64,000 nt of DNA, from NCBI GenBank assembly GCA_963750205.1, contig CAVVRJ010000016.1, positions 163,400 through 227,399 of the forward strand, written 5' to 3'. The notes under the pieces were generated by a model. That model saw nothing but the letters and a program-made list of their open reading frames with translations, did no database searches and had not been told where the DNA came from. The position numbers were made by a program, and so were the translations under genes. Positions within the stretch are counted from its first letter, which is position 1; each line of letters opens with the position of its first letter. This DNA is from an uncultured Planctomycetota bacterium (GTDB lineage Bacteria > Planctomycetota > Phycisphaerae > Sedimentisphaerales > Anaerobacaceae). Shown here piece by piece: positions 81-29,523 of the stretch.

Positions 81-1705
<1,625 letters not shown>

Positions 1706-1747
1706 AAGTCGAACTACGGCAACGCCGTGACGGTTAAGTGAGCCGGG

Positions 1748-4112
1748 CTACTCCTGCACGTAGAACACGGACGTAAGCGGCGGGAGAGCCAGGCGAGTAG
1801 TCGTTACGGGCTGACCGGCGGTCTCCGAAGTCGTGACGTCCGCCTTCTTCTGTTGGCCCGTGTGGGGGTCCCAGAGGGCCAGGTTCTTGCTGCCCCGCAG
1901 GACGACCGTGGCATCGACGGCGGCATCGGTGGAATTGGCGAAGAAGTAGATGTCGCGGCCGCTCTTGACTTTGTGGATGTAGGTCAACGCTCCGGCGTAA
2001 GACCGGTTCATCGGCACCGGCCATAGCCAGGGCGTCTGGACATCGACATCACGCACGGGCAAGGCCTCTTTCAGCACCGCGTCCACCATCTTCGGTTCCG
2101 GCCGAGGCAGGAAATAGGCCTTGCCGCCCGCCTGGTTGGGATGGGCGAAGAAGGTCTTGAAATCATCGGTGAAGGCGCGGATCGACGCGGTCATCGGGCC
2201 GTAAGCGGGAATGCCGAACACCTCGCCGACGATCTGCTGGACTTGCTTATCCTGCTTGAACTCGGCGGATCGGGTCGGCAGCTTGCTGGTGGCGATGACC
2301 GTTCCGCCGGCGCGGTAGAAAGTCGAGGATCTTCTGGGCCGTGGCGACGGAGATCGTGTTGCCGCCTGGGACGATCAGGACGCGGAACTCTTCGCGGTTC
2401 TCCTTGTTGTCGAGAATCAGCTTGTTGCCGGCGACGAGGCACTTGCTCTCCAGGATTTCGGGGTGCAGGTAGGTGAAGTCGATGCGCATGCCGCGAAACA
2501 GCATCTCGCCCAGATCCATGTAATCGTTCTCCGGGGCCAGGATGCCGCCTTCCAGGGCATAGTAGAAGCCGGGCTCGCCGCGACCGCGACTGCCGCCGGT
2601 GACGCGGCTCGACCGCCACGGGCTGCGCGAAAGCGTAGTCGGCCTGCAGGGCCGCGATGGGGTAGAGGATGGCGATATCCGCCACGTGCCGGCCGTGACG
2701 CAGCAGGTACTCCATCCGGCCGACGTAGCGGCCCATTTCCGCCGTGGCCGTGTCGCCGGGGCGACCGCCGATCTGGAGATTGACGCCCATGGCGTGCTGG
2801 TCCATCGCCGTGCGGTACACCCACTTGGCGGTCCGGTACTCCGGCTGGTAGGCGGCGTAGGTCTCGGCCATCATCAGGGGCCGGTCATAGTTGTACGCCG
2901 CCGAGGTGACGACCTTGTACGAGACGTTGGAGCGCCCCGTGAACCAGATGTCGTCAATGCCGGGGATTTGCTGGTGCTTGAAGATCTTCATCAGATCGCC
3001 CTGCGTCCCGACGGGATTACGCGACTCCTCCTGGTCCAAGTGGCCCGACATGGCGATGCCGTGCTTCTGGCACCAGGCGGCGATCCGGCCGATGAAGTTC
3101 TCCGCATACAGCTCCGTACGGAAGCCGTACAACGCATTGCGGGCCGCCGCGGTTTCGGGGCCGATGTCGTACCACAGGGCCGGATAGTATTTCATCGGGG
3201 AGTAGCCGAACTTCTTCTCAAAGGCGTCATTGTAGCCGGCGGTCCAGAGCCGGCCGCTGACGGCGTTGTGCAGCGACGGCTCGTCGTAGAACGACATCTT
3301 GATGACCTTCCCGAAATACTCCTTGAGATGGCCGTAATACTGGTCGTACATGACCTCGATCAACTCATCGACGGCCTTGGGATCGAGATAGTCGCAGATG
3401 CCCCGTCGGCGGGCCGGGTCGAGATAGAACACCATGACCTTCCAATTGCCGGCCGGGACCTGGCACGTGAATGTCGCCTTGTCCCGGCTGGTCTGGCCGC
3501 TGACATCGACACATTCGAGCGTGTCGAGGTTCATCATCGCGTGTGCCAATGTAGATCCCGTTGGCGATAGGCAGCGCCAGCTCCGCCTGCGCGGGCCCCG
3601 TCACATCCTTTTCGACTTTCTCCAAGCTCTTCTCGGCGTCATTGGGATACTTCGCATAGAACAGGCCCGCCCGCCATGCCGGTCGGGAACTGCTGCTCGT
3701 CATAGAGCACGTCCATCGGGAGATTGTTCTTCAATCCTTCCTCAATCGCCACTTTGTAGAGCCGGAAGAACTCCTCGTTGAGGTACGTGACGGGTGTGCC
3801 GCCGCTCGCCGCGCCGCTACCGCCTCCCCTGCCGCCGAACCCGCCGGAGGGCGTTATCATGAAGCCGCCGTAGGAGTCACTCTTAACAGCCTGCTGCACC
3901 ATCGCCCGGACGCGTTCTTCGTTCAGAGAGCCCAGGTTGAAGGTGAACCAGGCATGGCCCCGGTACTGGCGAGGCGGGTCCTTGAAGGCGGCATAATCGA
4001 CCGGGCCGCCGTTCGGGTCATTGGCCGCGATGGTCCCTACCTGATTTTGGGCCCCGGCGCTCAACGCCAGAGCCAGAATGAACACACCCAGAGATTTGTC
4101 TGCCCGACCCAT
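1748..4112 (-). pseudogene. secreted glycoside hydrolase (family not assigned), about 790 aa, split over >=4 frames
   Basis: Fragments 3639..4112 (signal peptide MGRADKSLGVFILALALSAGAQ, YDEQQFPTGMAGG), 3365..3703, 2191..3549 (FYDEPSLH, MAETYAAYQ, GHLDQEE), 2247..2519 and 1748..2221 are colinear on the minus strand and read as one protein when the frame is switched. Confidence 0.45.
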
Positions 4113-4141
4113 GGCCGACCATCCTTTCCGAATTCATCGAT

Positions 4142-5454
4142 TCACGGCTGCAGGTGCATCTGCATGAATTTCAGGAACACGGGCCAGTCCGCCGGAGCGG
4201 AGCCGTGGCCGCCCGGGTGCATATAGAAGCCGATCGTGTGCAGGATGGGCTCTCCGGCGGGAGGCATCTTATCCGTGTCCAGCCCCTGTTTGCCGAGCAA
4301 TTTGTAGACCGGTCCGGCGGCGACCGCGGCCAGGAACTCGCCATAGGGGTCCGACCATTTATCGGTGTAGCCCGTTTGGAGTAGCACCGGGCGCGGTGCG
4401 ATCAGGGCGATGAGCAGGTGCGCATCGACGGGGAACTCGTTGACCTTGTCCGCCCATTTCGCGTAGTTGCGCAGAATTGATACGGGAAACGCGTCGGGGC
4501 GACCAGATGCTTGATGGTCTCGCCGTAGTTGCGCCGGCTCAGGGCCGCGCCGCCCTCGCCGGAACAACTGGCAATCACCAGGGCGACGCGCGTGTCGTGG
4601 GCCCCCGCCCACAGCACGGTCTTGCCCAGCCGGGACACACCCATGATAGCGATCCGTTTGGCATCCACGTCCTTGTCCGTCTCGAAGTAATCGATCGCCC
4701 GGCTCAAGCCCCAGGCCCAGGCGGCAATGGAACCCCACTCGTCCGGCGCGGGCCCCGTCTGCCCCTCTTTCAGATATAGCTTCCGCACACCATAGGCGAC
4801 CGCCCCAAGAGCATCCGGATCGACGTCGGTATAGTTGAAAGTGGCGATGCCGAACCCCTTCTCCAGCACGGGCAGCACGTTCAAGCCCCCGAAGCCAGGT
4901 CGGGTCGCCGGCACTCTCCGGTTCTGCTTGCGGTCCCACGTGGTCCCGACCTTCACGTTGGGATCGTTCACCGCTGTATTGTTCGCGCCGAAACCCAGAT
5001 TCAGCAACAGCGGTACCGGTTTGCCGGCGCCGGCGGGCAGATAGACCAGCAGGTCCATCTTGGGACCGGCCTTATCCTTCGAGAAATAGATCGTCACTTG
5101 CCGGCGGGTGGCCTTGCCCTGGAAGGCCGGTGTCGCCTTCTCGAACACCTCGAAAGTCATGTCGGCAGGACGGCCCGGGCTGCGGCCGTACTGATTCTCC
5201 TCGAACAGTCTGACGATCTCCGGCCGGCGCTTCTCGAACCACGTGGCGGCGTCGCGCACCGGCGTGCCGTCGGCGAGTTTCAGCACCTCCGGCAGCGTAT
5301 ACTGCCCCACCTTCGCCTCCGTGTAGTTGACAGGAATGTTCGCGACGCTGGCGTCGGGCGAGTCAGCGATTTGGGCTTGGACGGCGTTACTCACGGACAA
5401 GAGGATCAGACAGCAACCGGCGGCTTTCATTTTATCTACCCTTCCAGAAGACAC
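4142..5454 (-). CDS. CE15-like glucuronoyl esterase / acetyl-xylan-esterase-like serine hydrolase (one apparent frameshift near 4500)
   Basis: ORF 4402..5454 has a signal peptide (MKAAGCCLILLSVSNAVQAQ) and a G-V-S-R-L-G nucleophile-elbow motif resembling the CE15 G-C-S-R-x-G. The C-terminus continues in ORF 4142..4939 (HPGGHG...). Confidence 0.45.
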
Positions 5455-5563: not shown

Positions 5564-6190
5564 ATGATGGAGTCTGCGGGTGCGATCCGCGTGGGAGTGT
5601 GTATCTCCCACTTGGCAGGCGGGGGTTGCTTTTGGTTGGGGCAACCGGTAGTGACAGAGGTTCAAGGAAATGCAAGGCCGGGCAGCGACGTGGTTGAAGC
5701 TGCGGCCGGGATTTTCGCCGAATACGGCGGTTTCATCCGTGCTGTCGTTGGTTTTCAGGCCCACAACAAGTCCGAGGAAGAGGATATCTTCCAAGCGTTC
5801 TTCCTCACCCTGATTCGTCGGCCCGTGCCGATAGACGTGCAGAACATCAAGAGCTATCTCTACCAGGCAATCACCAACCACATTCGAGATTTCGTGCGGC
5901 GACGAGCGAGGTACTGCGCCGCGGTGAAAAAATATGCGAGAGAAATCAGAATTCCCATCAACAATTGCCCGGCGGAAAACGTCTTAATAGAGGATACGGA
6001 GGAGAAAAACGCGATCATTGTCTCCTTCGCCCGGCACTTGCAGCAGCGGCAGGCCCAGGCCTTCTTGTTGCGGTATCGGGATCATTTCAGCATTCGCGAG
6101 ATCGCGGTGAAAATGGGCGTGAAAGGAAGGACAGTCAGCCGGTACTTGTCGGACAGTATCCGGACGCTCCGTAAGGTGCTGGCCACTTGA
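5564..6190 (+). CDS. ECF-type RNA polymerase sigma-70 family factor
   Basis: Sigma region 2 (FQAFFLTLIRRPVPIDVQNIKSYLYQAITNHIRDFVRRR) and region 4 HTH (FLLRYRDHFSIREIAVKMGVKGRTVSRYLSDSIRTLRK). The true start is probably an internal or alternative codon downstream of 5564. Confidence 0.7.
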   Translation: MMESAGAIRVGVCISHLAGGGCFWLGQPVVTEVQGNARPGSDVVEAAAGIFAEYGGFIRAVVGFQAHNKSEEEDIFQAFFLTLIRRPVPIDVQNIKSYLYQAITNHIRDFVRRRARYCAAVKKYAREIRIPINNCPAENVLIEDTEEKNAIIVSFARHLQQRQAQAFLLRYRDHFSIREIAVKMGVKGRTVSRYLSDSIRTLRKVLAT

Positions 6191-6202
6191 TGAGGGACGT
6201 CA

Positions 6203-7777
6203 ATGAGAGCCGATGAGGGAAACCGCCTGTGCCGGGAGGCGGAGGTTCATTATTACGATCTGCTCGGCCCGGATGAGGCAGCCGTGCCGGAGTCGATTTG
6301 TCGGCACGTAGCGGCTTGCCCTGCGTGCCAGGAGCAGATGCGCCGCCTGCGCGAAGCCCTGTTTGAGGCGGAGCGCTCGCGGGACGGTACTTGTTCTGGA
6401 GATGACGAGACCATCGAGGCCTTGGCCCAGCAGTTCCAACTGCTGGAGGAGTACGTCACGTGCGCCGAGGTCAAGCCCTTCCTCCCGAAGCTGGCACTGC
6501 CCGCACTGCAGATTCGGATTCCCACGCCGGTGACGGTCCATGTGGATCATTGCCCGCGCTGCGCCAAGGATTTGGTGGCGCTCCGGGCACTGGACCTCAC
6601 CACCGACCAGTTGCAGCGGCTCAGCCGGTTCTTCGCGTCAGGTAGTCGTGAGGATGTCCTTGGGGTCGAGAGCTTCCCTCTGGTCGAGAGTACCGATATT
6701 ACTTGCCGTGACGTATCCCGGGCCGATCTCTTCGATGCCGTGGTCCCCTATGGGGCGCCGCCGGACGACAGGCACCGAGCCATTATCTCGCACGTTCGTA
6801 CCTGCCGCACGTGCCGGAAGATGGCCCAAACGTTGCGGCAGCGGATCTGGGCTATCCTGGAGCGAGCGGATTCCGGGACAAGCACTATTTACCATGCCAA
6901 AGGTGACATCGAACACACTCCGGGGGAGGTCGAGAGCCCTTATCCGTACCCGATCGATGTGGAAGTTCAGCACGGCGCATCGACCTGTGGCGCCGGTCCG
7001 AGCGCGAGGGAAGAGAGAAGACACGCCCTTGCTTCCGCCGAGCGCAAAGACTTCCTCGCAAGAGCAACGAACGAGGGAACCGCAGAAGGTCCCCTTCTCG
7101 TCACGAGGCACCGGTCCCGAGCGGCGCTCGTGGCCGTGGGCTTGGCCGCCCTGCTGCTGCTGCGGTGGGCCAACACGCCCACGGCGTTCGGGACCGGCAT
7201 CGGCGACCTGCTCAAGCCCCTGGCCGGGGTCCGTAGCGTTCATGTCGTCAGCACGTACCGAAACAATGAGCGGCCGATCCAGCAGTTTTGGATCGCGTAT
7301 CATTCGAACAGACTGGTGGTGAACGGGGAGGAGCATTTCGACCTGTACGATCTCAACCACAATTGCGTGAGGAAGACGGAGCGGGGGATGAGGGCCGGTC
7401 CGCCCGTCAGACTGAGCAAGGCCCAGTGGGATGGGGCCAGAAGCCTCGTGAGCAACTACCTGCGGGATGTGATGACGTGCGTCTCCCCCGATACCAAACT
7501 GTCTCCGCCGATGGTCAATCCGGGCCGCGAGACGGCACAGAACCTCGCTGTCTATGAGACAAACTCGCTGTCGCGCACTGCGAGCCCATCTCTGCACAAC
7601 AAACGACGAGTGTATGTCGACCCGGCGACGGGATTGCCCCAAAGAACGGAAATCTACCGAGAGATACGCGACAAGACCGGCGGAACGTTCTGGGATCTCC
7701 TGACGACAACGGTATTTACATATCCCACCGAACTGGAAATGGATCGGGAGATTGCGACGATGTTTCCGGCCCAGTGA
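6203..7777 (+). CDS. anti-sigma factor, zf-HC2 type, single-pass membrane protein with large C-terminal extracytoplasmic domain
   Basis: Lies immediately downstream of the ECF sigma gene. Three H-x3-C-x2-C motifs (HVAACPACQEQM, HCPRCAKDL, HVRTCRTCRKM). Hydrophobic TM segment AALVAVGLAALLLLRW near residue 310. Confidence 0.6.
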   Translation: MRADEGNRLCREAEVHYYDLLGPDEAAVPESICRHVAACPACQEQMRRLREALFEAERSRDGTCSGDDETIEALAQQFQLLEEYVTCAEVKPFLPKLALPALQIRIPTPVTVHVDHCPRCAKDLVALRALDLTTDQLQRLSRFFASGSREDVLGVESFPLVESTDITCRDVSRADLFDAVVPYGAPPDDRHRAIISHVRTCRTCRKMAQTLRQRIWAILERADSGTSTIYHAKGDIEHTPGEVESPYPYPIDVEVQHGASTCGAGPSAREERRHALASAERKDFLARATNEGTAEGPLLVTRHRSRAALVAVGLAALLLLRWANTPTAFGTGIGDLLKPLAGVRSVHVVSTYRNNERPIQQFWIAYHSNRLVVNGEEHFDLYDLNHNCVRKTERGMRAGPPVRLSKAQWDGARSLVSNYLRDVMTCVSPDTKLSPPMVNPGRETAQNLAVYETNSLSRTASPSLHNKRRVYVDPATGLPQRTEIYREIRDKTGGTFWDLLTTTVFTYPTELEMDREIATMFPAQ

Positions 7778-8497: not shown

Positions 8498-9238
8498 GTG
8501 TCCCTGGGCATCGGGGTGGATATGGGGCTCAAGACTTTGTACGCGAGAAGCGTGGTCACCACCACGACCCTCCGCGATTTCGAGATCGAGGGGGCCGCCG
8601 AAGTGGGCGAATGCACCGGGGCGCAGTCCTTTCGCGCCACCCGTCAGCGTGACGCCCAGCCGGTCCTGCTGCACAAGTTCCGGCCGGCCGAGTCTCTGCT
8701 CGAATTGGGACCGCTGGTCACCCATGAAGAGCCGCCCGATTTCACGAAGTCGTTCGTCACTCACTTCACTGACCTGTTCGTCGTCGCCGGCAGCGCCTAC
8801 CTGGTCGAGCCGCTGCCGCCCTGCTTTGCCTTGCGCGATCTGTGGCGGTACGTGCTGCAGAAGCGGCCCGACCAGGCGTATACCGTGATCGCCCTGGTGA
8901 TGCGCCAACTGCTTGCCATTCTCCGGCGGCTCACACGGCAGAGCCGCTACCACGGCGCCTTGAGCCTCGGGAACATCGTGCTGGCGCCGACGGCCCGTTT
9001 CGGCATCCTGGCCGGGCATCTGGCCTGCCAGGACGGCCGGCTCTGGCTCCGCAAAGACCCCGCAAGCCCTGTAGAGCCTGACTCTCATGCTCTCGCCGAC
9101 CTCTTGGGCACACTGCTCGACATCGAGGCCGAGGTCGCCACTCTCCAGAACGTGCCCACGCTCCTGCCCGCGGAGGCTCGCCACCGGATTCACGAGCTGC
9201 GGCGGGCCGTCCTGCAGGCCACGGCACAGACGATATAG
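8498..9238 (+). CDS. hypothetical protein with degenerate protein-kinase-like fold (pseudokinase-like)
   Basis: Diverse amino-acid composition, unlike the Arg/Gly-rich antisense ORF 8429..9331. Weak kinase-like landmarks: FEIEGAAEVGECTGAQSF (Gly-loop-like), VLLHKF, and VMRQLLAILRRL...YHGALSLGNIVLA (catalytic-loop-like with HRD replaced). Confidence 0.4.
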   Translation: MSLGIGVDMGLKTLYARSVVTTTTLRDFEIEGAAEVGECTGAQSFRATRQRDAQPVLLHKFRPAESLLELGPLVTHEEPPDFTKSFVTHFTDLFVVAGSAYLVEPLPPCFALRDLWRYVLQKRPDQAYTVIALVMRQLLAILRRLTRQSRYHGALSLGNIVLAPTARFGILAGHLACQDGRLWLRKDPASPVEPDSHALADLLGTLLDIEAEVATLQNVPTLLPAEARHRIHELRRAVLQATAQTI

Positions 9239-9457
9239 AATCACCAGCGACGCTCTTCGAACGACGGCCTTCCAAGGCAGCCCCAGGCCCAATTGGTCAG
9301 GCGGAATTCCCGACGAAGCTCTTTGAGCCAACGGGCCTGGACGTTACAATGGGCCTTTCGGCGCCGGAATCGAGGAAGCACGGTCAAACGAGTTTGGCTG
9401 TGCCACCCGTTTCGAGATGGACTGGCGCGGACGGGGTCTTGTACCACAGGATAGGAC

Positions 9458-10643
9458 ATGAAGACTTACGAACAGATCAACGATCGGATCGAGTCGGGCA
9501 AGGCCGTCGTGCTAACCGCCGACGAGATCATGGATTACGTCGATAAGAAGGGCGTGGCGGCGGCCGCGAAGGAGGTGGACGTGGTCACGACCGCCACCTT
9601 CGGGCCGATGTGCTCGTCAGGCTGCTTCCTGAACTTCGGGCACTCCAAGCCGCGGATTCGCATGTCGGAGGCGTGGGTCGAGGACGTCCTCGTCTACGCG
9701 GGCGTCGCGGCGGTGGACGTCTACCTCGGGGCGACGCAACTACGCCACGCCGACCCGGCGAACATGTACTATCCGGGCGAGTTCCGCTACGGCGGCGGCC
9801 ACGTCATCGAGGACCTCGTCGCGGGCAAGACGCTCCAGCTCTTTGCCCTCTCCTACGGGACGGACGAGTACCCGCGCCGCGAGATCCGCACGTACTTCAC
9901 GATCCAGGACCTCAACCAGGCGATCATGGTCAACCCGCGGAACTGCTACCAGAACTACAACGTGGCGATCAACGACTCGGACCGGACGATCTACACGTAT
10001 CTGGGCATCCTGGAGCCCCGCCGCAAGAACGCGACCTACTGCTCCGCCGGCCAGTTGTCGCCGCTGCTTGAACGATCCCTACTACGAGACCATCGGCGTG
10101 GGGACGCGCGTCTGGCTGGCGGGGGCCCAGGGGCACGTCTACGCCGAGGGGACCCAGCACGCCGGCGACTGCGAGCGGACCCCCAACGGCGTGCCGAAGG
10201 AAGGGGCGGGGACCTTGGCCCTGACCGCCGACATGAAGCAGATGCGGCCCGAGTTCGTCCGGGGCGTGAGCCTGCGCGGCTACGGCGTGTCGCTGGCCCT
10301 GGGCGTCGGCGTGCCCATCCCGATTCTCAATGAGCAGGTCCTCCAGCGCACCTGCATCCGGGACCGGGATATCCTCGCGCCCGTGACCGACTATAGCCAC
10401 GACTATCCCGAGAAGACCGGCCGGGTGATCCGCTACGCCAATTATGAGGAGCTGCGCAGCGGCCAGATCGACGTCGAGGGCAAGAAAGTCGAGGTCGGCT
10501 CGATGTCGTCCTACTACAAGGCCCTGGAGATCGCCAACCTGCTGGCCGACGAGATTCGCCGGGGCGATTTTCTGGTGAGCCGGCCGATCGCTCCGCTGCC
10601 CCGCAATACGAAAATGAAACCGTTGGTGATCAGAGAGAAGTGA
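9458..10643 (+). CDS. homocysteine biosynthesis protein, COG1900/DUF39 (L-aspartate-semialdehyde sulfurtransferase-like); one apparent frameshift near 10070
   Basis: N-terminus MKTYEQINDRIESGKAVVLTADEIMDYV...TATFGPMCSSGCFLNFGH in ORF 9458..10333 continues as NDPYYETIGVGTRVWLAGAQGHVY... in ORF 9843..10643. It is followed by a NIL-ferredoxin gene, which is the typical partner. Confidence 0.65.
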
Positions 10644-10658
10644 GAAGTCTCAGGCATG

Positions 10659-10734
10659 CCATTGCGAGCGAAGCGAAGCAATCTCCCCTGCCGAGGATTG
10701 AGATTGCTTCGTCGCTGCGTCCTCGCAATGACAT
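10659..10734. repeat. ~76-nt imperfect palindromic element (family GGATTGAGATTGCTTCGTCGCTGCGTCCTCGCAATGACAT)
   Basis: ccattgcgagcgaagcgaagcaatctc ...loop... gagattgcttcgtcgctgcgtcctcgcaatgacat. Lies 16 nt after the COG1900 gene stop. The right arm recurs at 1..35 and 47666..47727. Confidence 0.65.
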
Positions 10735-10737
10735 TCC

Positions 10738-11181
10738 TTGGACCCCTTTGGGAAACCTGATATGAGTCCGACCGTAACGAAGAAACTGATGCTTTTCTTC
10801 CCGAAATGCGAGTGTGAGAAACCGATCATTTATCACCTGGTGAAGGACCACAACCTCATCGTGAACGTCTACCGGGCGAGGGTGACGCCGGAGGAAGAGG
10901 GCTACCTGGTTCTGGACGTGACGGGAACGGAGCAGGACATCGAGGGGGCGATGGACTTCGTGCGGACCTTCAACGTCACGATCAACACCACCGGCAAAGG
11001 CGTGACGTGGGACGAGCATCGCTGCACGCATTGCGGCCAGTGCCTCCCCCGCTGCCCGACCGAGGCCCTGCACTTCGCCGACGCGGGCACGCGCCGGGTG
11101 GTCTTCGACGAAGCGGAATGCATCGAGTGCCTGGCGTGCATCCGGGTCTGCCCCTTCAGCGCCTGCGCCTCGGCCTTTTGA
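10738..11181 (+). CDS. NIL-domain / 2x[4Fe-4S] ferredoxin partner of COG1900
   Basis: The N-terminal NIL-like domain is followed by CTHCGQCLPRCP and CIECLACIRVCP cysteine clusters. Confidence 0.65.
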   Translation: MDPFGKPDMSPTVTKKLMLFFPKCECEKPIIYHLVKDHNLIVNVYRARVTPEEEGYLVLDVTGTEQDIEGAMDFVRTFNVTINTTGKGVTWDEHRCTHCGQCLPRCPTEALHFADAGTRRVVFDEAECIECLACIRVCPFSACASAF

Positions 11182-11323
11182 TCCGGACCTGTCATGCGTG
11201 TGTCTTGTCATCCCTTCGGCAAGCTCGGGGCAGGCTCTGAACGGAGCGAAGCGCAGGGAAGGATCTGGCACGCGTATTTAAAACTCCTCCCATTCGCCGG
11301 CCAGATCCTTCGCTGCGCTCAGG

Positions 11324-12046
11324 ATGACAGAACACGACCCTATGACTGACACTCGCAGACGAACCTACCGCACCTTCACGCATCACGAAGCGGTCCTCCG
11401 CGTCTGCTGCGACCAGTTCGACGTGGTCGTGGCGGAGATCGTCCGCCAGCGGCGGATTCTCGAAGAGTACATCGCGCGCCAGCCCGAGTTCAAAACCGCG
11501 TTCGTGCCACTCGACTTGCGGGCCGATGCGCCGGAAGTGGCCCGGCGCATGGCTTGGGCGGCCCGGAGAGCCAATGTCGGTCCGATGGCCGCAGTCGCCG
11601 GCGCGATGGCGCAGCTCGCCGCGGAGGCCGCTCTGGCCGCCGGGGCCGAAGAGGCCATCGTGGATAACGGCGGCGATATCTATCTCAAAGCCGTCGAGCC
11701 GGTGATCGTCGCTCTCGGCACGGGCACCGCCAGGTTGGCCGACCGGCTGGCCTTTTCGGTCGAGCCGCAGGAGACGCCGGTCTCGATCTGCTCCTCCTCG
11801 GGCAAGATGGGTCACTCGTGGAGTTTCGGCCTGTGCGACCTGGCGACGATCGTCGCGAAGGACGCCGCCCTGGCCGACGCCGCCGCCACGCAGGCCGGGA
11901 ACCTCGTCAAGACCATCCGCGACGTGGACGCCGCCCTGGAGCGGATCATCGCCATTGACGGAGTGGACGGCGTCATGCTCGTCAAAGACGACCGCGTCGG
12001 CCTCGCCGGCCACCTGCCCCGCTTGGTCAAGACCGCCGGTTTTTGA
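11324..12046 (+). CDS. UPF0280 family (ApbE-like) protein
   Basis: A 240-aa protein with IVDNGGDIY and SSSGKMGHSWSFGLCDLATIVAKDAALADAAATQAGN motifs typical of UPF0280. The antisense 297-aa ORF is Arg/Gly-rich shadow. Confidence 0.5.
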   Translation: MTEHDPMTDTRRRTYRTFTHHEAVLRVCCDQFDVVVAEIVRQRRILEEYIARQPEFKTAFVPLDLRADAPEVARRMAWAARRANVGPMAAVAGAMAQLAAEAALAAGAEEAIVDNGGDIYLKAVEPVIVALGTGTARLADRLAFSVEPQETPVSICSSSGKMGHSWSFGLCDLATIVAKDAALADAAATQAGNLVKTIRDVDAALERIIAIDGVDGVMLVKDDRVGLAGHLPRLVKTAGF

Positions 12047-12116: not shown

Positions 12117-13019
12117 TTGGGAGACGGGAAAATGGAGACGATGCAATTCGAGCCGATGTCGGTGGGCCGGATCTTCGACCGGGCCTTCGCAATCTACCGC
12201 AACAACTTCCTGCGTTTCGTCACCATCGTGGCGATCATCGAAGTGCCCCTGGCGCTGTTCTCGATTGCCACCAGCTCGTGGACGGAAACGAGAGGGACGC
12301 CTCATCAGACCTTCTTCGAGCGAATGAAAGCCCTACAAGAAGACCCTCGCGCTGCAGCCGAGCGAGATACTCGGGACGACAAGGCACCCAGCCCCCTCGG
12401 CTTCGTGGGCCGAGGCATTACGGTCCTGCTGACGATGGTGGGAACCATGCTCTGCCAGGCGGCCCTGATCAAGAGCGTCTCGGAGACGTATCTGGGCCAT
12501 GAAATCACGATCGGGCAAGCCTACCGATTTGCTCTCCCGAAGTCAGTGACGTTGGTCTTGGCCACCCTCTGCGTCGGCTTGGTGACCGGGCTTGGATTCC
12601 TGCTGCTCATCATCCCCGGCGTGATCTTCAGCTTGTGGTTCTACCTCACCGCACCGGCCATTGTCGTGGAGAATCACTCGGTTGGCAATGGGATGTCGCG
12701 TAGCAAGGCCCTGGTCGGGGGCAATCTGGGCAAGGTCTTTGGCGTCATGTTTCTGGCCGTCCTCATGAACTGGGTCATCTGGATCCTGTTCCTTCTCCCG
12801 GAAAGTTGGATTAACAGGATGCTGCCGGCCGATAGCGCGACGTTTCGGTCGTTCGTGAGCTACCTCGGCGGCACGGTCAGCACGATCCTGACGATGCCGA
12901 TCGGCGCCACCGCTTCCATCCTGCTGTACTACGATCTGCGCATTCGTAAGGAAGGCTTCGATTTGCAGATGCTCGCCCAGAGCATGACCGGGGAGCAAGG
13001 GGACTTGCGTGCGGCTTAG
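12117..13019 (+). CDS. polytopic membrane protein (GP-PDE-membrane-domain/DUF975-like)
   Basis: N-terminus FDRAFAIYRNNFLRFVTIVAIIEVPLALFSIA plus 5-6 further hydrophobic segments. Lies immediately upstream of the DUF4129 gene. Confidence 0.4.
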   Translation: MGDGKMETMQFEPMSVGRIFDRAFAIYRNNFLRFVTIVAIIEVPLALFSIATSSWTETRGTPHQTFFERMKALQEDPRAAAERDTRDDKAPSPLGFVGRGITVLLTMVGTMLCQAALIKSVSETYLGHEITIGQAYRFALPKSVTLVLATLCVGLVTGLGFLLLIIPGVIFSLWFYLTAPAIVVENHSVGNGMSRSKALVGGNLGKVFGVMFLAVLMNWVIWILFLLPESWINRMLPADSATFRSFVSYLGGTVSTILTMPIGATASILLYYDLRIRKEGFDLQMLAQSMTGEQGDLRAA

Positions 13020-13735
13020 CTTCGTCAGTGTTGGCGCAGCCCTTGTTCTGCTGCTGTGTGGCGTCGCGACCGCCGGGTCCCGGGGCCGAACAACATCGAC
13101 CTCCGCCTCGGCGGATTACGCGCGGGCGGATGCTGAGACGATCCGGGCGCACTTAGAGGGCATCCTCTCCGATCCGCGGTTTGCCGCGCATAAAACGTTC
13201 TGGGACTGGCTCAGGGAAAGACTGCGACGCTGGGGAGGCCCCCATCTGTCCCCCGAGTGGGGGAGGTTCATCGCCTGGGCGGTTGCGGCTTGGTGCCTTC
13301 TCTCGCTGCTGGCCATTCTTGGCGACCTCGGCTGGACGATCTGGCTGCTGGTCCGCCCGGAGAAACGCACCTCGATGGCAGAAGTGCCCGGTGGCTCGGA
13401 GAGGTATGAGAACGCGTCGTTCGAGCAGCTTTGGGAACGTTCCGCCGGGCTGGCCCGGGCCGGAGAGTTTCGCGGCGATTGGCGTCCTGCTGGTGGCGCT
13501 GCTGCGCCGGCTGGACGCCTTGAAGGTGCTACACTTCCACAAGAGCAAGACCAACGGCGAATACGTTCGTGAGTACCCGGGCGAGCGCGCGGGCCGACGC
13601 GAATTTGTGCAATTCATCACCGCGTTCGAGCACAGCATTTACGGCGGCTCCGAGGCGGCCGGACCCACTTACGATACCATGACCATCCTGGCGCAACAGG
13701 TCCTCCGCGATGCCTCCGAAAAACCCCAAATCTGA
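13009..13735 (+). CDS. DUF4129 domain membrane protein (one apparent frameshift near 13440)
   Basis: Signal/TM N-terminus plus second TM (FIAWAVAAWCLLSLLAILGDLGWTIWLL). The C-terminus in frame 13181..13735 carries LKVLHFHKSKTNGEYVREY...FVQFITAFEHSIYGG, which is DUF4129-like. Confidence 0.5.
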
Positions 13736-14987
13736 GTATACGATCCTGACCGTGCTGGGGTTGGTCACGGCCCTCGCGCTGGGGTGGATGGCCTGGCGCG
13801 GGATGCTGCGCGAGCAGCGCGAGGGGCGGACGGGCGTGCGCACGACGCGCTCTACCAGCGATGACGGCATGCTCATTGGCTACACGCTTTTCGAACGCTT
13901 GGGCCTGCCCGTAGAGCGCTCGAACCAGATGCTCCTGGCGGATCAGCTCGACGGCGTGGGAACGGTCTTCCTGATCGACCCGCTCGTGCCGGTCGGTGCC
14001 GTCGAGACGGAGGACCTGGGTGCATGGGTCGCGCACGGCGGCGTGCTGGTCACCACGGAACTCATCGCGAATCTGTCCCCCGCAACACGAAAGCTCGCCA
14101 AGGAGATACCGACGCCCTCCCCGCAACGTCACCGGCATCCGACCGAAGAGGGGCGCTTCACGAAGGTGCCTGAAGAGGCGAAATCGTTGCCTCTGGCGCG
14201 AGACGTCTCCGGCATCTTTGTCGAGACCAGCGACGTGCTTCCAGCACGCCCGCCGGACTCGAACGCCCCGACGAGCATCCTGGAGCCGCTCTTCACGGCG
14301 GGTACCGGCGTGCGCATCGCACAATGGGGAGTGGGCCGGGGCCGCGTCATTCTCCTTTCCGATAGCTCGTTCCTGGCCAACGTGAATACCGCCCAAGGCG
14401 ACAATGCCATCCTGGCAACCAATCTCGTCTCCTATGCGCAGGCTCAAGCGACAAGTCCACGAATTGTATTCAACGAGTTCCACTACGGCTCCGGCGGCTT
14501 CGGCCAGGGAATGGGCGTCCTGGCGGTCATGCTTTTCACCACCAGCCCCGGATGGGCGGTGCTCGCCTTGACGACCGCCGGCATCTTGTTTCTCTTTTAC
14601 CGAGGCCGGCAATTCGGACCCCGGCGGGATTTCGGCCGGCAGCGGCGTCGCTCGAAGCTGGAGTACGTGCGGGCAGTGGGCGCCACGTACCGCGCCGCCG
14701 GAGCGCATCACCTGACACTCCGGTTGATTTACACGTGGTTCCGCCAGCAATTGACGAATCGAGCCGGTTTGACTGCCAGTGCTTCGAACAGCCTCGTGGC
14801 CCAGGAGCTGGCGCGGTACGGCCGGTCCGAGGCGGCGGACTACGAGCAAATGCTGGATGAATGTGACGGGGTCCTGTCCCAACAGATGATATCGCAGCGG
14901 CAGCTCACCGCGACGTTGACGCAATTGGTACGCCTAGAGAAGGAGATTCTGCATGGATCTGGCAACGGCAAACAGCCTGGCCGGTAG
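13710..14987 (+). CDS. DUF4350 domain protein
   Basis: TM N-terminus followed by a DUF4350-like region (LGAWVAHGGVLVTTELIANL...RVILLSDSSFLANVN). Position between DUF4129 and MoxR is typical. Confidence 0.5.
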   Translation: MPPKNPKSEYTILTVLGLVTALALGWMAWRGMLREQREGRTGVRTTRSTSDDGMLIGYTLFERLGLPVERSNQMLLADQLDGVGTVFLIDPLVPVGAVETEDLGAWVAHGGVLVTTELIANLSPATRKLAKEIPTPSPQRHRHPTEEGRFTKVPEEAKSLPLARDVSGIFVETSDVLPARPPDSNAPTSILEPLFTAGTGVRIAQWGVGRGRVILLSDSSFLANVNTAQGDNAILATNLVSYAQAQATSPRIVFNEFHYGSGGFGQGMGVLAVMLFTTSPGWAVLALTTAGILFLFYRGRQFGPRRDFGRQRRRSKLEYVRAVGATYRAAGAHHLTLRLIYTWFRQQLTNRAGLTASASNSLVAQELARYGRSEAADYEQMLDECDGVLSQQMISQRQLTATLTQLVRLEKEILHGSGNGKQPGR

Positions 14988-15930
14988 TATAACGCAGGAG
15001 CTGGGCAAGGCCCTCGTCGGGCAGGAGAGGGTCTTGGAAGAAGCGGTGATCGCCCTGCTGGCCGGCGGGCATGCCCTGCTCGAAGGGGTCCCCGGGACGG
15101 GCAAGACCCTCCTCGGACGGGCCCTGGCCCGTGTCACGGGCACCCGCTTCCGGCGGATTCAATTCACGCCGGACCTCATGCCCTCGGACATCATCGGCGT
15201 CAATGTCTTCGATCTGGCGGCCAAGCAATTCGACTTCCGGCCCGGCCCCGTCTTCGGCGACATCGTCCTGGCCGACGAGATCAACCGCGCTCCCGCCAAG
15301 ACGCAAGCCGCTTTGCTGGAAGCGATGCAGGAGCGGCAGGCCACCGTGGACGGCAAGGCCTACCGGCTCTCCAACGTCTTCACTGTGTTTGCCACGCAAA
15401 ATCCGGTCGAGTTCGAGGGGACCTACCCCCTGCCGGAGGCCCAGGTGGACCGCTTCATGCTCAAGATCGTGATCGACTACCCGCAGGAGGCTGCCGAGGC
15501 CCAGATTCTGGACAAGGTGGAAGCGGGCTTCGACGCCGCCTTGGCCGGCTCGGAGGTCCAGCCCATGCTGGATGCCCAGAAACTCCTGGACCTTCGCGCG
15601 GCCACGCGAACCGTCCACGTCGAGGAGATAGTCCGCCGCTACGTGACGCGTGTGATTCGGGCCACACGATCCCGCTCCCAGATCACGCTCGGCGCCAGCC
15701 CGCGGGCCGGCGTCATGCTCATGCTCGCCGCCAAGGCCAAGGCCCTCCTGGCCGGCCGGGACTTCGTCAGTCCCGATGATGTCAAGGCGATGGCCCCGGC
15801 CGTGCTGCGGCATCGGATCCTGCTCTTGCCCGAGGTGGAGGTCGAGGGGCTTACTCCCGATGACTGCCTCAAAGAAATCCTCCTGGCGCGGAGGTGCCGA
15901 GGTAGAGCATGGTTCCATCCCCGCGTTTGA
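14953..15930 (+). CDS. MoxR-family AAA+ ATPase
   Basis: Walker A GVPGTGKT; FRRIQFTPDLMPSDIIG; Walker B ILADEINRAPAKTQAALLEAMQE; sensor FTVFATQNP. Confidence 0.85.
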   Translation: MDLATANSLAGSITQELGKALVGQERVLEEAVIALLAGGHALLEGVPGTGKTLLGRALARVTGTRFRRIQFTPDLMPSDIIGVNVFDLAAKQFDFRPGPVFGDIVLADEINRAPAKTQAALLEAMQERQATVDGKAYRLSNVFTVFATQNPVEFEGTYPLPEAQVDRFMLKIVIDYPQEAAEAQILDKVEAGFDAALAGSEVQPMLDAQKLLDLRAATRTVHVEEIVRRYVTRVIRATRSRSQITLGASPRAGVMLMLAAKAKALLAGRDFVSPDDVKAMAPAVLRHRILLLPEVEVEGLTPDDCLKEILLARRCRGRAWFHPRV

Positions 15931-17396
15931 TGATCCTGGTGATGGCGGCGGCGCCCCTGTTCCTGGCGGGCGCGCTCTACGAAGGGGCCGCGGCCGTCGG
16001 CGTGCTGTACGTGATCGTCCTGGCGTTGTACACGACTCTGGATGCCTTGCTGCTGCCCCGCCGCCGGCAGATCGTGGTGGCCCGAAGCCTTCCCGCGCGC
16101 ATCTCCGTTGGCTATCCGACCGCCCTGCGCTACACCGTGGAGAATCGCACGCGCCGACGCCTTCAGGTCCAACTGGCGGAGGACAATCCAGAGGAGATTG
16201 ACTTATCCTCGGCGCAAGACGATATCGTTCTCGATATACCACGCTCTCCTTTTGCTGGTATTCGAATGCTGGGTGGCAGCCTCAAGCGCAGCTTGGGGAT
16301 GGCCTACCCCGCAAACGGTAATCGGCCTGCAACCGGAGCCCAACCATCCCCAAGGCCTTCGGCCTTGAGGCTGCCACCCGGAAACTGCCGGCCTCTCACA
16401 TGTTCTCTGAATCCGGGTCAGTCGGCTGAACTCGAATGCCGTCTGACGGCGCATCAGCGCGGCACCCACCGGCTGGAACGCCTCTTCGTACGTGTGCTTC
16501 CCGCCGCGGGACTTCTGTACCGCCAGTTCACGCTGGACCTGCCGACGGAGATCCAGGTCTTTCCGAACCTGATGAACGTCCGCAAGACGGAGCTGCTGGC
16601 CCGCCGGGGCTCCAGTTACGAACAGGGACTGGCTCGACTGCGACATATCGGCCAGGGCTACGCGTTCGAGAGCCTCCGCCGCTACGTGCGGGGCGACGAG
16701 ATGACACGGATCGAGTGGAAGGTGACCGCCCGGCGGGGCGAGCTGATCGTCAAGAATTTCGAGCCGGAACGGCAGCAGAGCATCCTGGTGGCCCTGGATG
16801 TGGGCCGGGCCACGGCGGGCGAGTTCCAGGGCCTTAGCCGCGTCGATTACCTGGTCAATGCGACGCTCATGCTCGCCTTTATCGCCTTACGCCAGCGGGA
16901 CCTGTTCAGCCTGGTCGCCTTCAGCGACCGGATCGAGAGCTATCTGCCCCCGGTCTCCGGCGTCAAGAACATCGAGCAGGTCGCCCGGGCCCTGTTCCAG
17001 GTGCAGCCCCGCCTGGTCGAGTCCGACTACGACGGCGCCTGCCGTTTCCTCGGCCTGAAGAACCGCAAGCGCAGCCTGCTGTGCCTGATGACCGACGTGA
17101 TCGACCGCCAGGCCAGCGACGTGCTCCTCGCCTACATGGCCCGCTTCGCCCGGTACCATTTGCCGCTGGCTGTGACGCTGTCGAACCCGGAGTTGCAGCA
17201 AGTGGCCCATCAGCCGCTCGCCTCGTGTGAAGATCCCTACAGCAAAGCGGTAGCCCTGGACGTCCTGGCGGCCCGAGAGGAAGCACTGATATCAATGCGG
17301 CGCAAGGGCGTGTCCGTTCTGGACGTCCCCCCGAACCGCCTGACGCCGGAGTTGATCAACCGCTATACTGCCATCAAATCAATGCGACGGTTGTAG
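15909..17396 (+). CDS. DUF58 (vWA-like) protein, MoxR partner
   Basis: DUF58 signature LRRYVRGDEMTRIEWKVTARRGELIVKNFE; start overlaps the MoxR stop; N-terminal TM helices. Confidence 0.7.
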   Translation: MVPSPRLMILVMAAAPLFLAGALYEGAAAVGVLYVIVLALYTTLDALLLPRRRQIVVARSLPARISVGYPTALRYTVENRTRRRLQVQLAEDNPEEIDLSSAQDDIVLDIPRSPFAGIRMLGGSLKRSLGMAYPANGNRPATGAQPSPRPSALRLPPGNCRPLTCSLNPGQSAELECRLTAHQRGTHRLERLFVRVLPAAGLLYRQFTLDLPTEIQVFPNLMNVRKTELLARRGSSYEQGLARLRHIGQGYAFESLRRYVRGDEMTRIEWKVTARRGELIVKNFEPERQQSILVALDVGRATAGEFQGLSRVDYLVNATLMLAFIALRQRDLFSLVAFSDRIESYLPPVSGVKNIEQVARALFQVQPRLVESDYDGACRFLGLKNRKRSLLCLMTDVIDRQASDVLLAYMARFARYHLPLAVTLSNPELQQVAHQPLASCEDPYSKAVALDVLAAREEALISMRRKGVSVLDVPPNRLTPELINRYTAIKSMRRL

Positions 17397-17471
17397 AGAA
17401 ACACGTGGGTTAAGAACCCACCCTACACACTTCGGAGCTTGCCGATGGGGCGCAGGTGTGCATGGCACACT

Positions 17472-18445
17472 CTACACGCTGGAGCCTTCCCGACCGACGA
17501 GGAGCAAGTAGGTGAGCACGACGGCCGCGACCGTCAGGCCCAGGACGATCTTCACAACGCCGGACCAGTAGGAGGGCGTAATAAAACCTTCGATGAAGGC
17601 CGCGACGGCGAACATCGGGATCGTGCCCAGGACCAACAGCACGGCGTCCCGCGCGCGAGACGCAGAGAAGCCGAACGGGTCCGGAAGCCGGGGACCGCCA
17701 GTGAGAAGCCCAATCGCAGCCCGGCCGCCGCCGCAACCAGAATCGCAAAGATCTCCAGCGTGCCGTGCGGGAGGAGAAACGACCAAAGCGGATAGCTCAA
17801 GCCGTAATTCGTGAAATGTCCGGCAAAGCCACCCAGCATCATCGCGTTCATCAGCAGCATGTAGCAGGTCCCAATCCCGGCTGTGATGCCAAGGGCAAAA
17901 ACGTTGAACGCCACGGAGATGTTGTTGGCCACAATGCCCGCCGCCATCGGCGGGTTTGGCATGCGCCGGAACCGCTCGCTGACATCCTCGCTGGTGACGG
18001 CGCCCGGATCGCTGACATCCAGCCCGCGCGGCACGAACAGATAGGCATTCGCGGGCACCAGTCGCGTGGCCACGTAGGCGCCCATAGAGCCGACAAGGAA
18101 AATGGTGGTCGCCAGGGTCATATAGGGCCACAGCCGGCGAAACAGCCGAGGGTACTCCCATCGAAAGAACCGCCAGACGATACCCAGCTTGCGGGGGCTG
18201 GCGCGCCGGTACAACAACCCGTGTGCGGCAATGGCGAGCTGATTCATCCGTCGCTGGGTGCCGGAGTCCGCCTGGACCAGCCGGGCCCGGGCCACATCGA
18301 CGGCCGCCGCTGGATAGAGGCGGGTCAGCTCATGCAACTCGGTTTCCGTCAAACTCCGCAGGCCGCCTTTCTGGGCCTTGGCGACCAGCGCCCCGAGTCG
18401 GTCCCAGACGGCTCGTCGTGTCTCCGGAAAATGGCCGGCGGTCAT
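17472..18445 (-). CDS. SpoIIM/DUF95-family integral membrane protein (one apparent frameshift near 17700)
   Basis: ORF 17552..18445 (FNVFALGITAGIGTCYMLLMNAMMLGGF) continues in ORF 17472..18161 (LVLGTIPMFAVAAFIEGFITP), which is DUF95-like. Confidence 0.5.
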
Positions 18446-19266
18446 GTCTGCTCCTTCTCGATGAAATCAGGGCCCGCGGTATCGCGCGGAGCGGTGCGGG
18501 CCTGCCGCAGCAGTTCTTCAACGCGCCGCTCCAGCATCGGCAGCGTGTTCGCTTCCAGCGGCGTTCCGGTGCGTTCCAGGATGGGCCGCAACAGCTTCGG
18601 CAGCAGTTGCGCACGGGCCTCGAGGCTGAGCTGGTCCCGCCGGAGCCAGTAGTTGTACAGCAGACGATACTCCTGCGGCTTCAATTGTGCGGCCTCCAAG
18701 GCAGCCGGGGCCGGAGGGATTTCGTCCGGGACCGTCGCCTTCGTGTCAGGCTGGGCCGCATAATCCGGGATCTCCTCGGAGACGACCACCGTCCCGGCGG
18801 CCAAGTCACCCAGCCGCTGGACCTTGCGGGTCAGGAACATCACCACCCCCGCCACGGCGTACAGGCCCATCATATCCACCGCTCGCAGGAGGTTGCGGAT
18901 CGCGATAGCGTTGAAGGAAATCGCGCCCCCTTCCTGCTGAACGACGCGGATTCTCATGTACCGCTTGCCCGGCGTCTGACCGTTCAGCCAGGTTTCAAAG
19001 AGGACAAAGTAGCCCCAATAGATGAGAAAGAGCAGCACGAAGAATAGAGCGAGCACCCACGCGTCGGCCCGGCGCGCTGCGCCCGCGCCCAAGGTCACGA
19101 AGCTGACGCCGAACGCCAGAGCAAGAAGCCCCAAGACCAGCAACGCCGTGACGATCAGTACCGTATCCAGCAGACCCGCCAGAAAACGAGAGCCGATGCC
19201 GGCCAACCGCCGCTGCAAGTCGACATTCTCCGGCGTCTCGATAGTGTCGAACTCGTCCATCATCGC
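18442..19266 (-). CDS. RDD-family membrane protein
   Basis: GQTPGKRYMRIRVVQQEGGAISF within two TM helices. Probable start MMDEFDTIE near 19266; sequence upstream in the same ORF overlaps the adjacent gene. Confidence 0.6.
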   Translation of the reverse strand, partial: AMMDEFDTIETPENVDLQRRLAGIGSRFLAGLLDTVLIVTALLVLGLLALAFGVSFVTLGAGAARRADAWVLALFFVLLFLIYWGYFVLFETWLNGQTPGKRYMRIRVVQQEGGAISFNAIAIRNLLRAVDMMGLYAVAGVVMFLTRKVQRLGDLAAGTVVVSEEIPDYAAQPDTKATVPDEIPPAPAALEAAQLKPQEYRLLYNYWLRRDQLSLEARAQLLPKLLRPILERTGTPLEANTLPMLERRVEELLRQARTAPRDTAGPDFIEKEQT

Positions 19267-19267
19267 T

Positions 19268-22110: not shown

Positions 22111-22821
22111 TTGCCCCAGGAGGGTCAATCGCTGGAGGTTTGTACCATGCTTTCGGTTCGTGAGGCCGCAGAAGTACTGGGAATTTCCCAGAAGACCGTC
22201 TATCGCTGGATTCAAGACGGCCGGTTGCCGTCCCACCGTCTGGGGGGACAGCACTTCCTGGAACGGTCCGAGGTGAACAACCTGGTGATCCGGGAAGGGC
22301 TGCGTCCCCTGCCCGACACGGCGGACCAGACGGAGGACAACGAGGACATTTCCCTGCACGACATGCTCGTCAAGGGCGGGGTTTTCTATCGGATTAGTGG
22401 CTCGACCAAGAAAGATATCCTGCAAAATGCCCTGAACATGGTCAAGGGGGTGGATGAGAGCGTCTCGGGCCCCCTGTTCCAGATGTTCGTCGCGCGGGAG
22501 GAGCTGGCTTCCACGGGTATCGGGGACCACATCGCGATCCCCCACGCCCGGGGGTCGCTGGTCGGCTACATCAGCCAGCCGATTCTCTCGTTGTCATTCC
22601 TGGAGACGCCGATCGACTACGGCGCCCTGGATGGCAAGCCCGTATACGCCCTGTTCCTGCTGGTGTCACCCAACGTCCGCACACACCTGCGCATTCTGGC
22701 GCAGTTGTCGTTCTGTCTGCACGATCCGGAATTCAAGCAAGCGGTCTTAAGCCAAGCCTCACGGGAGGCGATTCTAAGTACTCTCGCGCAGACGGAAGCC
22801 CGTCTGCGCCGAGATTCATGA
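22111..22821 (+). CDS. HTH (excisionase/MerR-like) - PTS EIIA type-2 (EIIA-Ntr/PtsN-like) fusion regulator
   Basis: N-terminus LSVREAAEVLGISQKTVYRWIQDGRLPSHRLGGQHF (HTH_17). The C-terminal EIIA-2 domain carries the phospho-His motif GDHIAIPHARG. RBS GGAGG at 22134; likely start ATG at 22147. Stop overlaps the next start (ATGA). Confidence 0.7.
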   Translation: MPQEGQSLEVCTMLSVREAAEVLGISQKTVYRWIQDGRLPSHRLGGQHFLERSEVNNLVIREGLRPLPDTADQTEDNEDISLHDMLVKGGVFYRISGSTKKDILQNALNMVKGVDESVSGPLFQMFVAREELASTGIGDHIAIPHARGSLVGYISQPILSLSFLETPIDYGALDGKPVYALFLLVSPNVRTHLRILAQLSFCLHDPEFKQAVLSQASREAILSTLAQTEARLRRDS

Positions 22822-25756: not shown

Positions 25757-25762
25757 CCAACG

Positions 25763-29414: not shown

Positions 29415-29417
29415 AAA

Positions 29418-29495
29418 GAATGGAATATTGGAAAGCTGAAAACGTTGGGATGACAGGGCGACCTGCCCAGTATTCCATGATTCCACTATTCCCTT
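29418..29495. promoter_or_regulatory. intergenic inverted array of TGGAAT (x2) ... ATTCCA (x3) hexamers between the large-subunit-like gene and the Fd/small-subunit gene
   Basis: agaaTGGAATATTGGAAag...cagTATTCCATgATTCCActATTCCC within an AT-rich 110-nt gap. Confidence 0.45.
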
Positions 29496-29523
29496 ATTAC
29501 AATTTACCTTAGAGGTTTGCGTC

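Follow-up and report, generated by a model that had tools for sequence, protein, structure and literature searches.

Sulfide-dependent homocysteine synthesis has been described in the literature as involving three protein families: DUF39 orthologs often adjoin genes for a ferredoxin and a COG2122 protein (Kuehl et al., 2014, PMC4045070), and in Desulfovibrio vulgaris Miyazaki the mutants in DUF39, NIL/ferredoxin, and COG2122 are methionine auxotrophs that methionine rescues, the fitness of COG2122 (DvMF_0044) tracking that of DUF39 with r = 0.98 (Price et al., 2018, PMC5764234). In the same report homoserine is not an intermediate, homoserine dehydrogenase being dispensable in D. vulgaris, and the clustered genes DET0921–DET0919 of Dehalococcoides are cited (PMC5764234). 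As for Methanosarcina acetivorans, the work of Rauch, Perona, and colleagues is summarized in two of these sources (PMC5764234, PMC12068725) to the effect that MA1821 carries a persulfide, that MA1822 is the probable source of electrons, and that MA1715, a COG2122 member, traffics sulfur and is needed if sulfide is to be assimilated efficiently; and Rauch and colleagues are credited with the proposal that COG2122 has a role in the persulfide modification of DUF39 and SepCysS (via PMC5764234). Cys54 of MA1821 is essential in vivo, and the COG1900 family to which such L-aspartate semialdehyde sulfurtransferases (L-ASSTs) belong also includes MMP16/ComF, for which L-ASST may partly substitute (PMC12068725). 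Here we analyze 64,000 nucleotides of contig CAVVRJ010000016.1 from an uncultured, Phycisphaerae-like planctomycete, which entire stretch we refer to as the window, and conclude that positions 9458–12046 very probably constitute a three-gene operon for sulfide-dependent homocysteine synthesis—that is, an L-ASST system—in which an extra C at 10067 is a probable consensus error.

The array comprises the following elements, lengths being given in amino acids (aa):

9458–10643, + strand: HcyBio/DUF39/COG1900 (PF01837) gene, whose frame is broken into two open reading frames (ORFs).
9458–10066, + strand: codons 1–203 of HcyBio, the predicted L-ASST catalytic subunit, with Cys52 in GPMCSSG (PF01837, E 3.4e-80).
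10067, + strand: extra C, beyond which HcyBio continues in a frame shifted by +1 (by comparison with loci L001, L085–L093, and L083).
10068–10643, + strand: codons 204–394 of HcyBio plus the stop, in the next frame (PF01837, E 8.8e-58).
10762–11181, + strand: ferredoxin with a NIL domain and two [4Fe-4S] motifs, MA1822-like, presumed electron-donor subunit, 139 aa (Pfam).
11324–12046, + strand: UPF0280/COG2122 protein (PF27030; DVU1097/2o34-like, with an ApbE-like fold), presumed sulfur-relay component with Cys156, 240 aa (profile and fold).
11342, + strand: alternative UPF0280 start.

A preliminary description of this DNA had recognized co-oriented COG1900, NIL-ferredoxin, and UPF0280 genes and had read the first two as a pair for homocysteine synthesis, an interpretation whose core is correct, all three genes lying on the + strand as listed. 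The gap between the ferredoxin and UPF0280, which had been given as 143 nt, measures 142 nt and is thus essentially as described. The HcyBio gene claimed at 9458 is likewise present, but not as the single open frame that had been supposed, the frameshift having been overlooked.

The first of the two HcyBio ORFs, at 9458–10333, fits positions 1–211 of the PF01837 profile (E 3e-80) and then leaves the frame, and the second, at 9843–10643 in the next frame, fits positions 184–348 (E 9e-58), so that the two fragments jointly span nearly the whole of the 349 profile positions. Deletion of the extra C yields a 394-aa protein reading ...SPLLNDPYY..., a length that agrees with those of the bacterial relatives, and the amino-acid identity to the intact 394-aa ortholog of L001—a JGI metagenome contig with about 85–90% nucleotide identity to the window—is 96% in the upstream half and 91% in the downstream half. 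In an alignment of 52 HcyBio homologs, the Methanosarcinales orthologs included, the Cys52 of GPMCSSG is invariant (52/52) and coincides with the Methanosarcinales cysteine that corresponds to Cys54 of MA1821, while the most conserved motif of the family consists of G198, L200, P202, L203, D206, and P207. The close homologs are named "homocysteine biosynthesis protein" at NCBI, and some are called "L-aspartate semialdehyde sulfurtransferase" at JGI. In the Pfam search of the window HcyBio only PF01837 was found, with neither the C-terminal CBS domain described for the methanogen L-ASSTs nor, in the two fragments, any match to a Fer4 domain. The TIGR03287 model (MMP16/ComF) matched partially (E 6e-40), and since its score of 137 bits is far under the cut-off of 364, the window protein is by its sequence of the COG1900a (L-ASST) type.

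The ferredoxin gene, whose ATG start is backed by an exact 139-aa product in the public records, encodes a NIL domain (PF09383, E 2.2e-10; Fer4_7, E 4e-14, both by Pfam) followed in the translation by two CxxCxxCxxxCP [4Fe-4S] motifs, CTHCGQCLPRCP and CIECLACIRVCP; and a NIL domain adjoins HcyBio in most of the related loci. The UPF0280 product, for its part, had no match at threshold in the Pfam scan of the window protein, but the NCBIfam PRK04334 (UPF0280) models matched it at E 4e-65, with 220 bits against a strict equivalog cut-off of 271, and PF27030 ("AbpE_bact") is precomputed on P0001, a public protein identical to it. The family counts 1826 representatives at 50% clustering, and among 58 diverse members 15 residues are invariant, all of which are kept in the window protein: G86, P87, A92, G93, N115, G116, G117, D118, C156, S158, G163, G169, D185, A188, and G229. 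Among these, C156 (in ICSSSG) is the sole invariant cysteine. The AlphaFold (AF2) model of the protein has a pLDDT of 94.1 and in Foldseek superimposes on 2o34_A with a TM of 0.83 (E 1e-18; 36% identity), whereas its TM to ApbE/Ftp structures is 0.5–0.6, with 10–16% identity. The family profile searched against the PDB recovers 2o34 at E 8e-62 and ApbE chains at only about 0.3, and the Pfam ApbE model (PF02424) reaches 15.7 bits against a cut-off of 25.6 and covers only positions 64–163 of its 266. Because that score is under the cut-off and the structural match only 0.5–0.6, UPF0280 falls outside the ApbE family and is related to ApbE only distantly, as a shorter protein.

In order to survey the association of these genes across phyla we scanned contigs with the UPF0280 alignment, from which scan we obtained 80 loci, and searched by tblastn for HcyBio within 2.3 kb; 72 of those loci, having at least 2 kb of upstream sequence, were considered informative. 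The loci came from Planctomycetota, Spirochaetota, Chloroflexota, Bacillota, Desulfobacterota, Omnitrophota, Methanosarcinales, Methanocellales, Asgard archaea, and other groups. HcyBio was found no more than 2.3 kb from UPF0280 in 54 of the 80 loci, or 54 of the 72 informative ones, and when linked it preceded UPF0280 on the same strand in nearly every case, in most instances with a NIL domain between the two. The loci without a nearby HcyBio were mainly from Desulfobacterota and Omnitrophota, a distribution that fits the dispersed arrangement published for Desulfovibrio. The preliminary description had made its idea of UPF0280 as a third component depend on such co-occurrence with COG1900, and the linkage in 54/72 informative loci bears that idea out; the idea is right, but was already published, in the form of the adjacency (PMC4045070) and of the genetic requirement (PMC5764234). 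The same genetics in D. vulgaris, having shown COG2122 to be required for homocysteine synthesis, removes UPF0280 from the candidates of unknown function among which it had been placed, and the suggestion of flavin or Fe-S delivery does not hold up well, the literature favoring sulfur trafficking.

By analogy with those orthologs, sulfide would be captured by the UPF0280/COG2122 protein, probably on the invariant Cys156, and handed on as a persulfide; Cys52 of the DUF39/COG1900a subunit would then take up the persulfide sulfur for its addition to the aldehyde carbon of aspartate semialdehyde; and the two or four electrons required for reduction of the adduct to homocysteine would come from the NIL-ferredoxin, with no participation of homoserine as an intermediate. 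The three genes probably share a single transcript from the sigma-70-like promoter candidate at 9323–9350.

The break in the HcyBio frame consists of a single C at 10067 in excess over the intact L001 ortholog, GCCGCTG[C]TTGAAC (GCCGCTG[C]TTGAACGATCC). The extra base is missing in ten relatives (L001 and L085–L093; 84–93% nucleotide identity), and in L001 and L085 the array of three genes recurs with HcyBio unbroken, at 394 and 395 aa, respectively; all the JGI contigs that match the junction flanks (8/8) are without it. At least nine other indels of 1–2 nt break conserved genes of the window (in 81–5454, 13470–13515, and 24842–29414), among them the following:

24904 and 25601: indels in the NADHdh/HyfC-like gene, versus the intact L001.
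27312: indel in the Proton_antipo_M gene, versus the intact L001.
28300 and 28669: indels in the 30/49-kDa fusion gene, versus the intact L001.
Further split genes: carboxylesterase (COesterase), GH106 rhamnosidase, glucuronyl esterase (about 4469), and DUF4129 (about 13471).

None of the window indels lies in a homopolymer, and all those that could be compared, except the one at 10067, are private to the window; the extra C resembles those private errors, being likewise one added pyrimidine in G+C-rich surroundings that contain no homopolymer. In a k-mer examination for deterministic error, the 9- and 10-mers around 10067 were unique, and the 8-mer GCTGTTGA was present uncorrupted three times. 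The frameshifted fragments are on the public record, under a single NCBI/ENA contig, and the repaired proteins are not, so that the indels belong to the deposited sequence; we accordingly rejected the possibility that the frameshifts had been introduced after deposition. We also rejected a Dam/GATC-linked nanopore error, for of the 119 small indels that distinguish the window from L083 (a locus of a second assembly, ENA ERZ25039519 contig_35734, loci L083 and L094) 13% are within 10 nt of a GATC, versus 14% of random positions.

Both halves of HcyBio bear the marks of purifying selection, a point that we count in favor of an artefact. Between the window and L083 the upstream half has 11 synonymous and 0 non-synonymous changes, and the downstream half, read in the shifted frame, has 14 synonymous and 3 conservative non-synonymous ones, with neutrality rejected at P = 1.2e-6; that downstream half has a dN/dS of 0.12 versus L001 and a pN/pS of 0.07 versus L083. 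The NIL-ferredoxin and UPF0280 genes are intact and under selection (dN/dS 0.07–0.22), and the out-of-frame stop at 10331–10333 is not conserved in L083. As a separate observation, L083 has at its position 8426 (window 9751) one more inserted base, a G private to it that falls within the first half of HcyBio, so that the gene is there broken twice.

Our interpretation is that the extra C is most probably not a biological lesion but an error of the consensus that depends on sequence context and that one technology has produced on two occasions, the assembly being rich in indels and probably built from long reads. We favor that reading because the insertion is of the same character as the private errors of the window, because no frameshift-stimulating signal is present, and because the frame changes within the stretch that the family conserves best (G198–P207). 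A series of points nevertheless weighs against it or against the wider assignment. The identical extra C occurs in the second, independent assembly, which represents a different strain (98% identity over the three-gene array and 94–97% elsewhere, with synonymous-biased differences); and when 16.2 kb of coding sequence were compared three ways, about 11 indels proved to be confined to the window and about 55 to the second assembly, 10067 being the only one clearly shared. Independent random errors would be expected to coincide in this manner only about 1% of the time, for which reason a context-specific systematic error at 10067 has had to be assumed. The collections searched contained no intact HcyBio copy of at least 98% amino-acid identity, the nearest intact one being at 97%; and the two assemblies have the insertion in common even though purifying selection on the downstream half is strong. 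With respect to function, the second conserved cysteine of the methanogen enzyme (MA1821 Cys131, which is non-essential) is Glu137 in the window HcyBio, the equivalent column being Cys for 35 of the 52 homologs, Glu for 9, and Asp for the other 8; and the biochemical roles of the three window proteins would be those of the orthologs, from which we have taken them.

The sharing of a lesion that is otherwise without parallel among the comparable indels, all the others being private, could be accommodated if the extra C were real and ancestral to both strains, with the enzyme being made either by +1 ribosomal frameshifting at CUU-G (CUG-CUU-G) or as two polypeptides, the second from the TTG at 10068, a start from which a 191-aa fragment is entered in the public records for both contigs (the window's and that of L083). 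The selection on the downstream half in the shifted frame and the lack of conservation in L083 of the stop at 10331–10333, which fits selection on the shifted frame only, would agree with such recoding; and the insertion does create CTT, a rare Leu codon (4%), ahead of a G, a CUU-N arrangement that we take to resemble the +1 slippery sites of prfB and Ty1. Past the CUU, however, there is neither an in-frame stop nor an obviously slow codon, GAA accounting for 29% of the Glu codons; upstream of the junction there is no Shine-Dalgarno-like stimulator; and ahead of the TTG at 10068 no ribosome-binding signal is evident. When to these points are added the position of the junction in the most conserved motif, the abundance of indels in both assemblies, and the lack of the extra base in all ten other relatives, a real insertion seems to us unlikely. 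That HcyBio should be a true pseudogene, the lineage having lost the DUF39 route to homocysteine, would agree with a frame that is broken in both of the deposited records; but the changes acquired by the downstream half since the divergence of the strains are 14 synonymous versus only 3 conservative non-synonymous ones, and the NIL-ferredoxin and UPF0280 partners have stayed intact and selected. Since the downstream half is thus still a selected coding sequence, this highly improbable option is effectively excluded. The consensus error remains our preferred reading, and the homocysteine pathway is almost certainly intact in the organism despite the broken frame.

The functional alternatives concern the other two assignments. 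UPF0280 might be conceived as maturing the ferredoxin or the DUF39 subunit, either as an ApbE-type flavin transferase or by delivering Fe-S, since its fold is ApbE-like, its GGD and ADAxAT motifs can be weakly aligned with those of ApbE, and 24 of the 58 family members have sub-threshold ApbE matches; we nevertheless regard this role as very unlikely in view of the score of 15.7 bits where Pfam requires 25.6 and of a length of 240 aa against the 310–340 of ApbE, to which may be added that the proposals for COG2122 relayed in PMC5764234 and PMC12068725 assign it a part in modifying DUF39 and SepCysS with persulfide and in trafficking sulfur for L-ASST, that a sole invariant cysteine suits a sulfur relay, and that none of the three proteins is known to contain a target motif for flavinylation. 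The COG1900 protein, in turn, might serve in another aldehyde-sulfurtransferase reaction, of the kind of the coenzyme M synthase, instead of in homocysteine synthesis, as the inclusion of MMP16/ComF in the family, the possible partial substitution by L-ASST (PMC12068725), and the partial TIGR03287 match would allow. That option is extremely improbable: the TIGR03287 score stays at 137 where 364 would be needed, the window domain is without the inserted ferredoxin domain and has as partner a separate NIL-ferredoxin, as is the case for MA1822, and the nearest homologs bear the names of homocysteine biosynthesis protein or L-ASST.

The presumed regulatory and intergenic elements of the array are the following:

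9323–9350, + strand: candidate sigma-70-like promoter with the sequence TTGAGC-16 nt-TACAAT, preceding the start codon of HcyBio by about 108 nt (consensus scan).
10647–10743: REP-like long palindromic hairpin in the HcyBio–ferredoxin spacer (fold –51.9 kcal/mol, z = –4.75).
11250–11319: second palindromic hairpin, with 28-nt arms, immediately upstream of the UPF0280 start (inverted repeat and fold).

In L083, L001, and L085 the presumed promoter is conserved together with the sequence on either side of it. At the Rfam gathering threshold a search of the whole window gave no match of any kind, and thus neither a SAM nor any other riboswitch upstream of the operon, and at E values up to 1 over 9150–11400 Rfam returned hairpin noise only. 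The HcyBio–ferredoxin spacer is about 6 nt in most relatives, and both of the window spacers are much longer. REP/MITE-like palindromes of the kind that occupies both spacers recur in the window at about 47637–47656 and about 59106–59207, the latter being related to the element at 11250–11319, and in L001 at 9297–9399 and 10817–10918, one of the recurrences being inverted. In L001 (18374–20005) the gene for the 30/49-kDa subunit has, at the equivalent of window 28477, an in-frame insertion of 117 nt that consists of a G+C-rich palindrome (GGCGAGGGCGTCCCGCCCTTGCA...TGCAAGGGCGGGACGCCCTCGCC) and looks like a palindromic element within a coding sequence.

As for the neighborhood, a Pfam search of about 50 ORFs of the window revealed no canonical methionine genes of the Cys_Met_Meta_PP, HTS, or MetX-like families, a result that holds for the window alone. 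Upstream of the operon, 5564–7777 encodes a sigma factor of the ECF type together with an anti-sigma-like protein of 524 aa, a pair that is syntenic in L001, L083, and L085, though poorly conserved (39–62% amino-acid identity). Downstream, a block of about 7 kb (12117–19488) separates the operon from a Hyf-like cluster and contains genes for DUF7847/UPF0259, DUF4129, DUF4350, a MoxR AAA+ ATPase, and DUF58, with SpoIIM and RDD on the other strand; the + strand genes of the block, from DUF7847 to DUF58, also lie downstream of the operon in L085, whose contig stops before the Hyf-like region, and the block is missing in L001 and L084, where the complex is only 2–3 kb downstream of the operon. This Hyf/Mbh-type membrane complex (22818–30564), the nearby hydrogenase-like complex of the preliminary description, lies in a region (22111–30564) where it is preceded by an HTH plus PTS-EIIA regulator, and it includes two Proton_antipo_M proteins, an NADHdh, a 'hydrogenase-4 component E', the 30/49-kDa fusion, and a Fer4 plus an Oxidored_q6 protein. 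Its large-subunit homolog matches Complex1_49kDa only, and since no CxxC pairs were seen by eye at the expected [NiFe] ligand sites, the complex may be related to hydrogenases without being a genuine one.

All three components are known from the literature, as are their clustering and what COG2122 does, and NCBI and JGI already name these proteins, so that the planctomycete locus is an ordinary copy of a known three-protein system that contributes nothing new to the biology of the DUF39 pathway. Were the extra C real, an undescribed +1 frameshift or a naturally split L-ASST would explain both the shared lesion and the selected halves and would constitute a rare instance of a core biosynthetic enzyme whose gene is recoded or split. 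The practical lesson is one of caution, in that from a broken HcyBio in indel-rich, long-read metagenome-assembled genomes automated tools would call a methionine auxotrophy.

Compared with the described systems, the window shares with M. acetivorans (MA1821–MA1822 plus MA1715) the same three protein families, the essential Cys54 of MA1821 being the Cys52 of GPMCSSG, the NIL-ferredoxin being in both a separate small subunit, and the UPF0280 protein having the invariant Cys of its family; but MA1715 is unlinked whereas the three window genes are contiguous, and the window HcyBio is without the C-terminal CBS domain, has Glu137 in place of Cys131, and belongs to a bacterial host. In D. vulgaris Miyazaki the genes DvMF_1464 (DUF39), DvMF_0262 (NIL/ferredoxin), and DvMF_0044 (COG2122) represent the same families, each genetically required (PMC5764234), and to DVU1097 of D. 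vulgaris Hildenborough (PDB 2o34, a structural-genomics "hypothetical protein") the window UPF0280 model has the aforementioned TM of 0.83 with 36% identity; the Desulfovibrio genes are dispersed, whereas those of the window are clustered. The arrangement in Dehalococcoides is closer, the three genes DET0921–DET0919 being clustered as in the window (PMC5764234) and the Dehalococcoidia loci L040, L047, L051, and L080 having the same order of HcyBio, NIL-ferredoxin, and UPF0280, albeit with an amino-acid identity of about 55% in HcyBio and with the window spacers widened by palindromic elements. MMP16/ComF (COG1900d, TIGR03287, coenzyme M synthase) has in common with the window protein the COG1900 domain and an analogous aldehyde-to-thiol chemistry, but its ferredoxin domain is inserted, where the window uses a separate NIL-ferredoxin, and its conserved cysteines are differently placed. 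Finally, the ApbE/Ftp FAD:protein FMN transferases (PF02424) share with UPF0280 the core of the fold, the GGD and ADAxAT motifs aligning weakly, but UPF0280 is about 80 residues shorter, and the region by which ApbE binds flavin is reported not to be conserved in COG2122 (PMC5764234).

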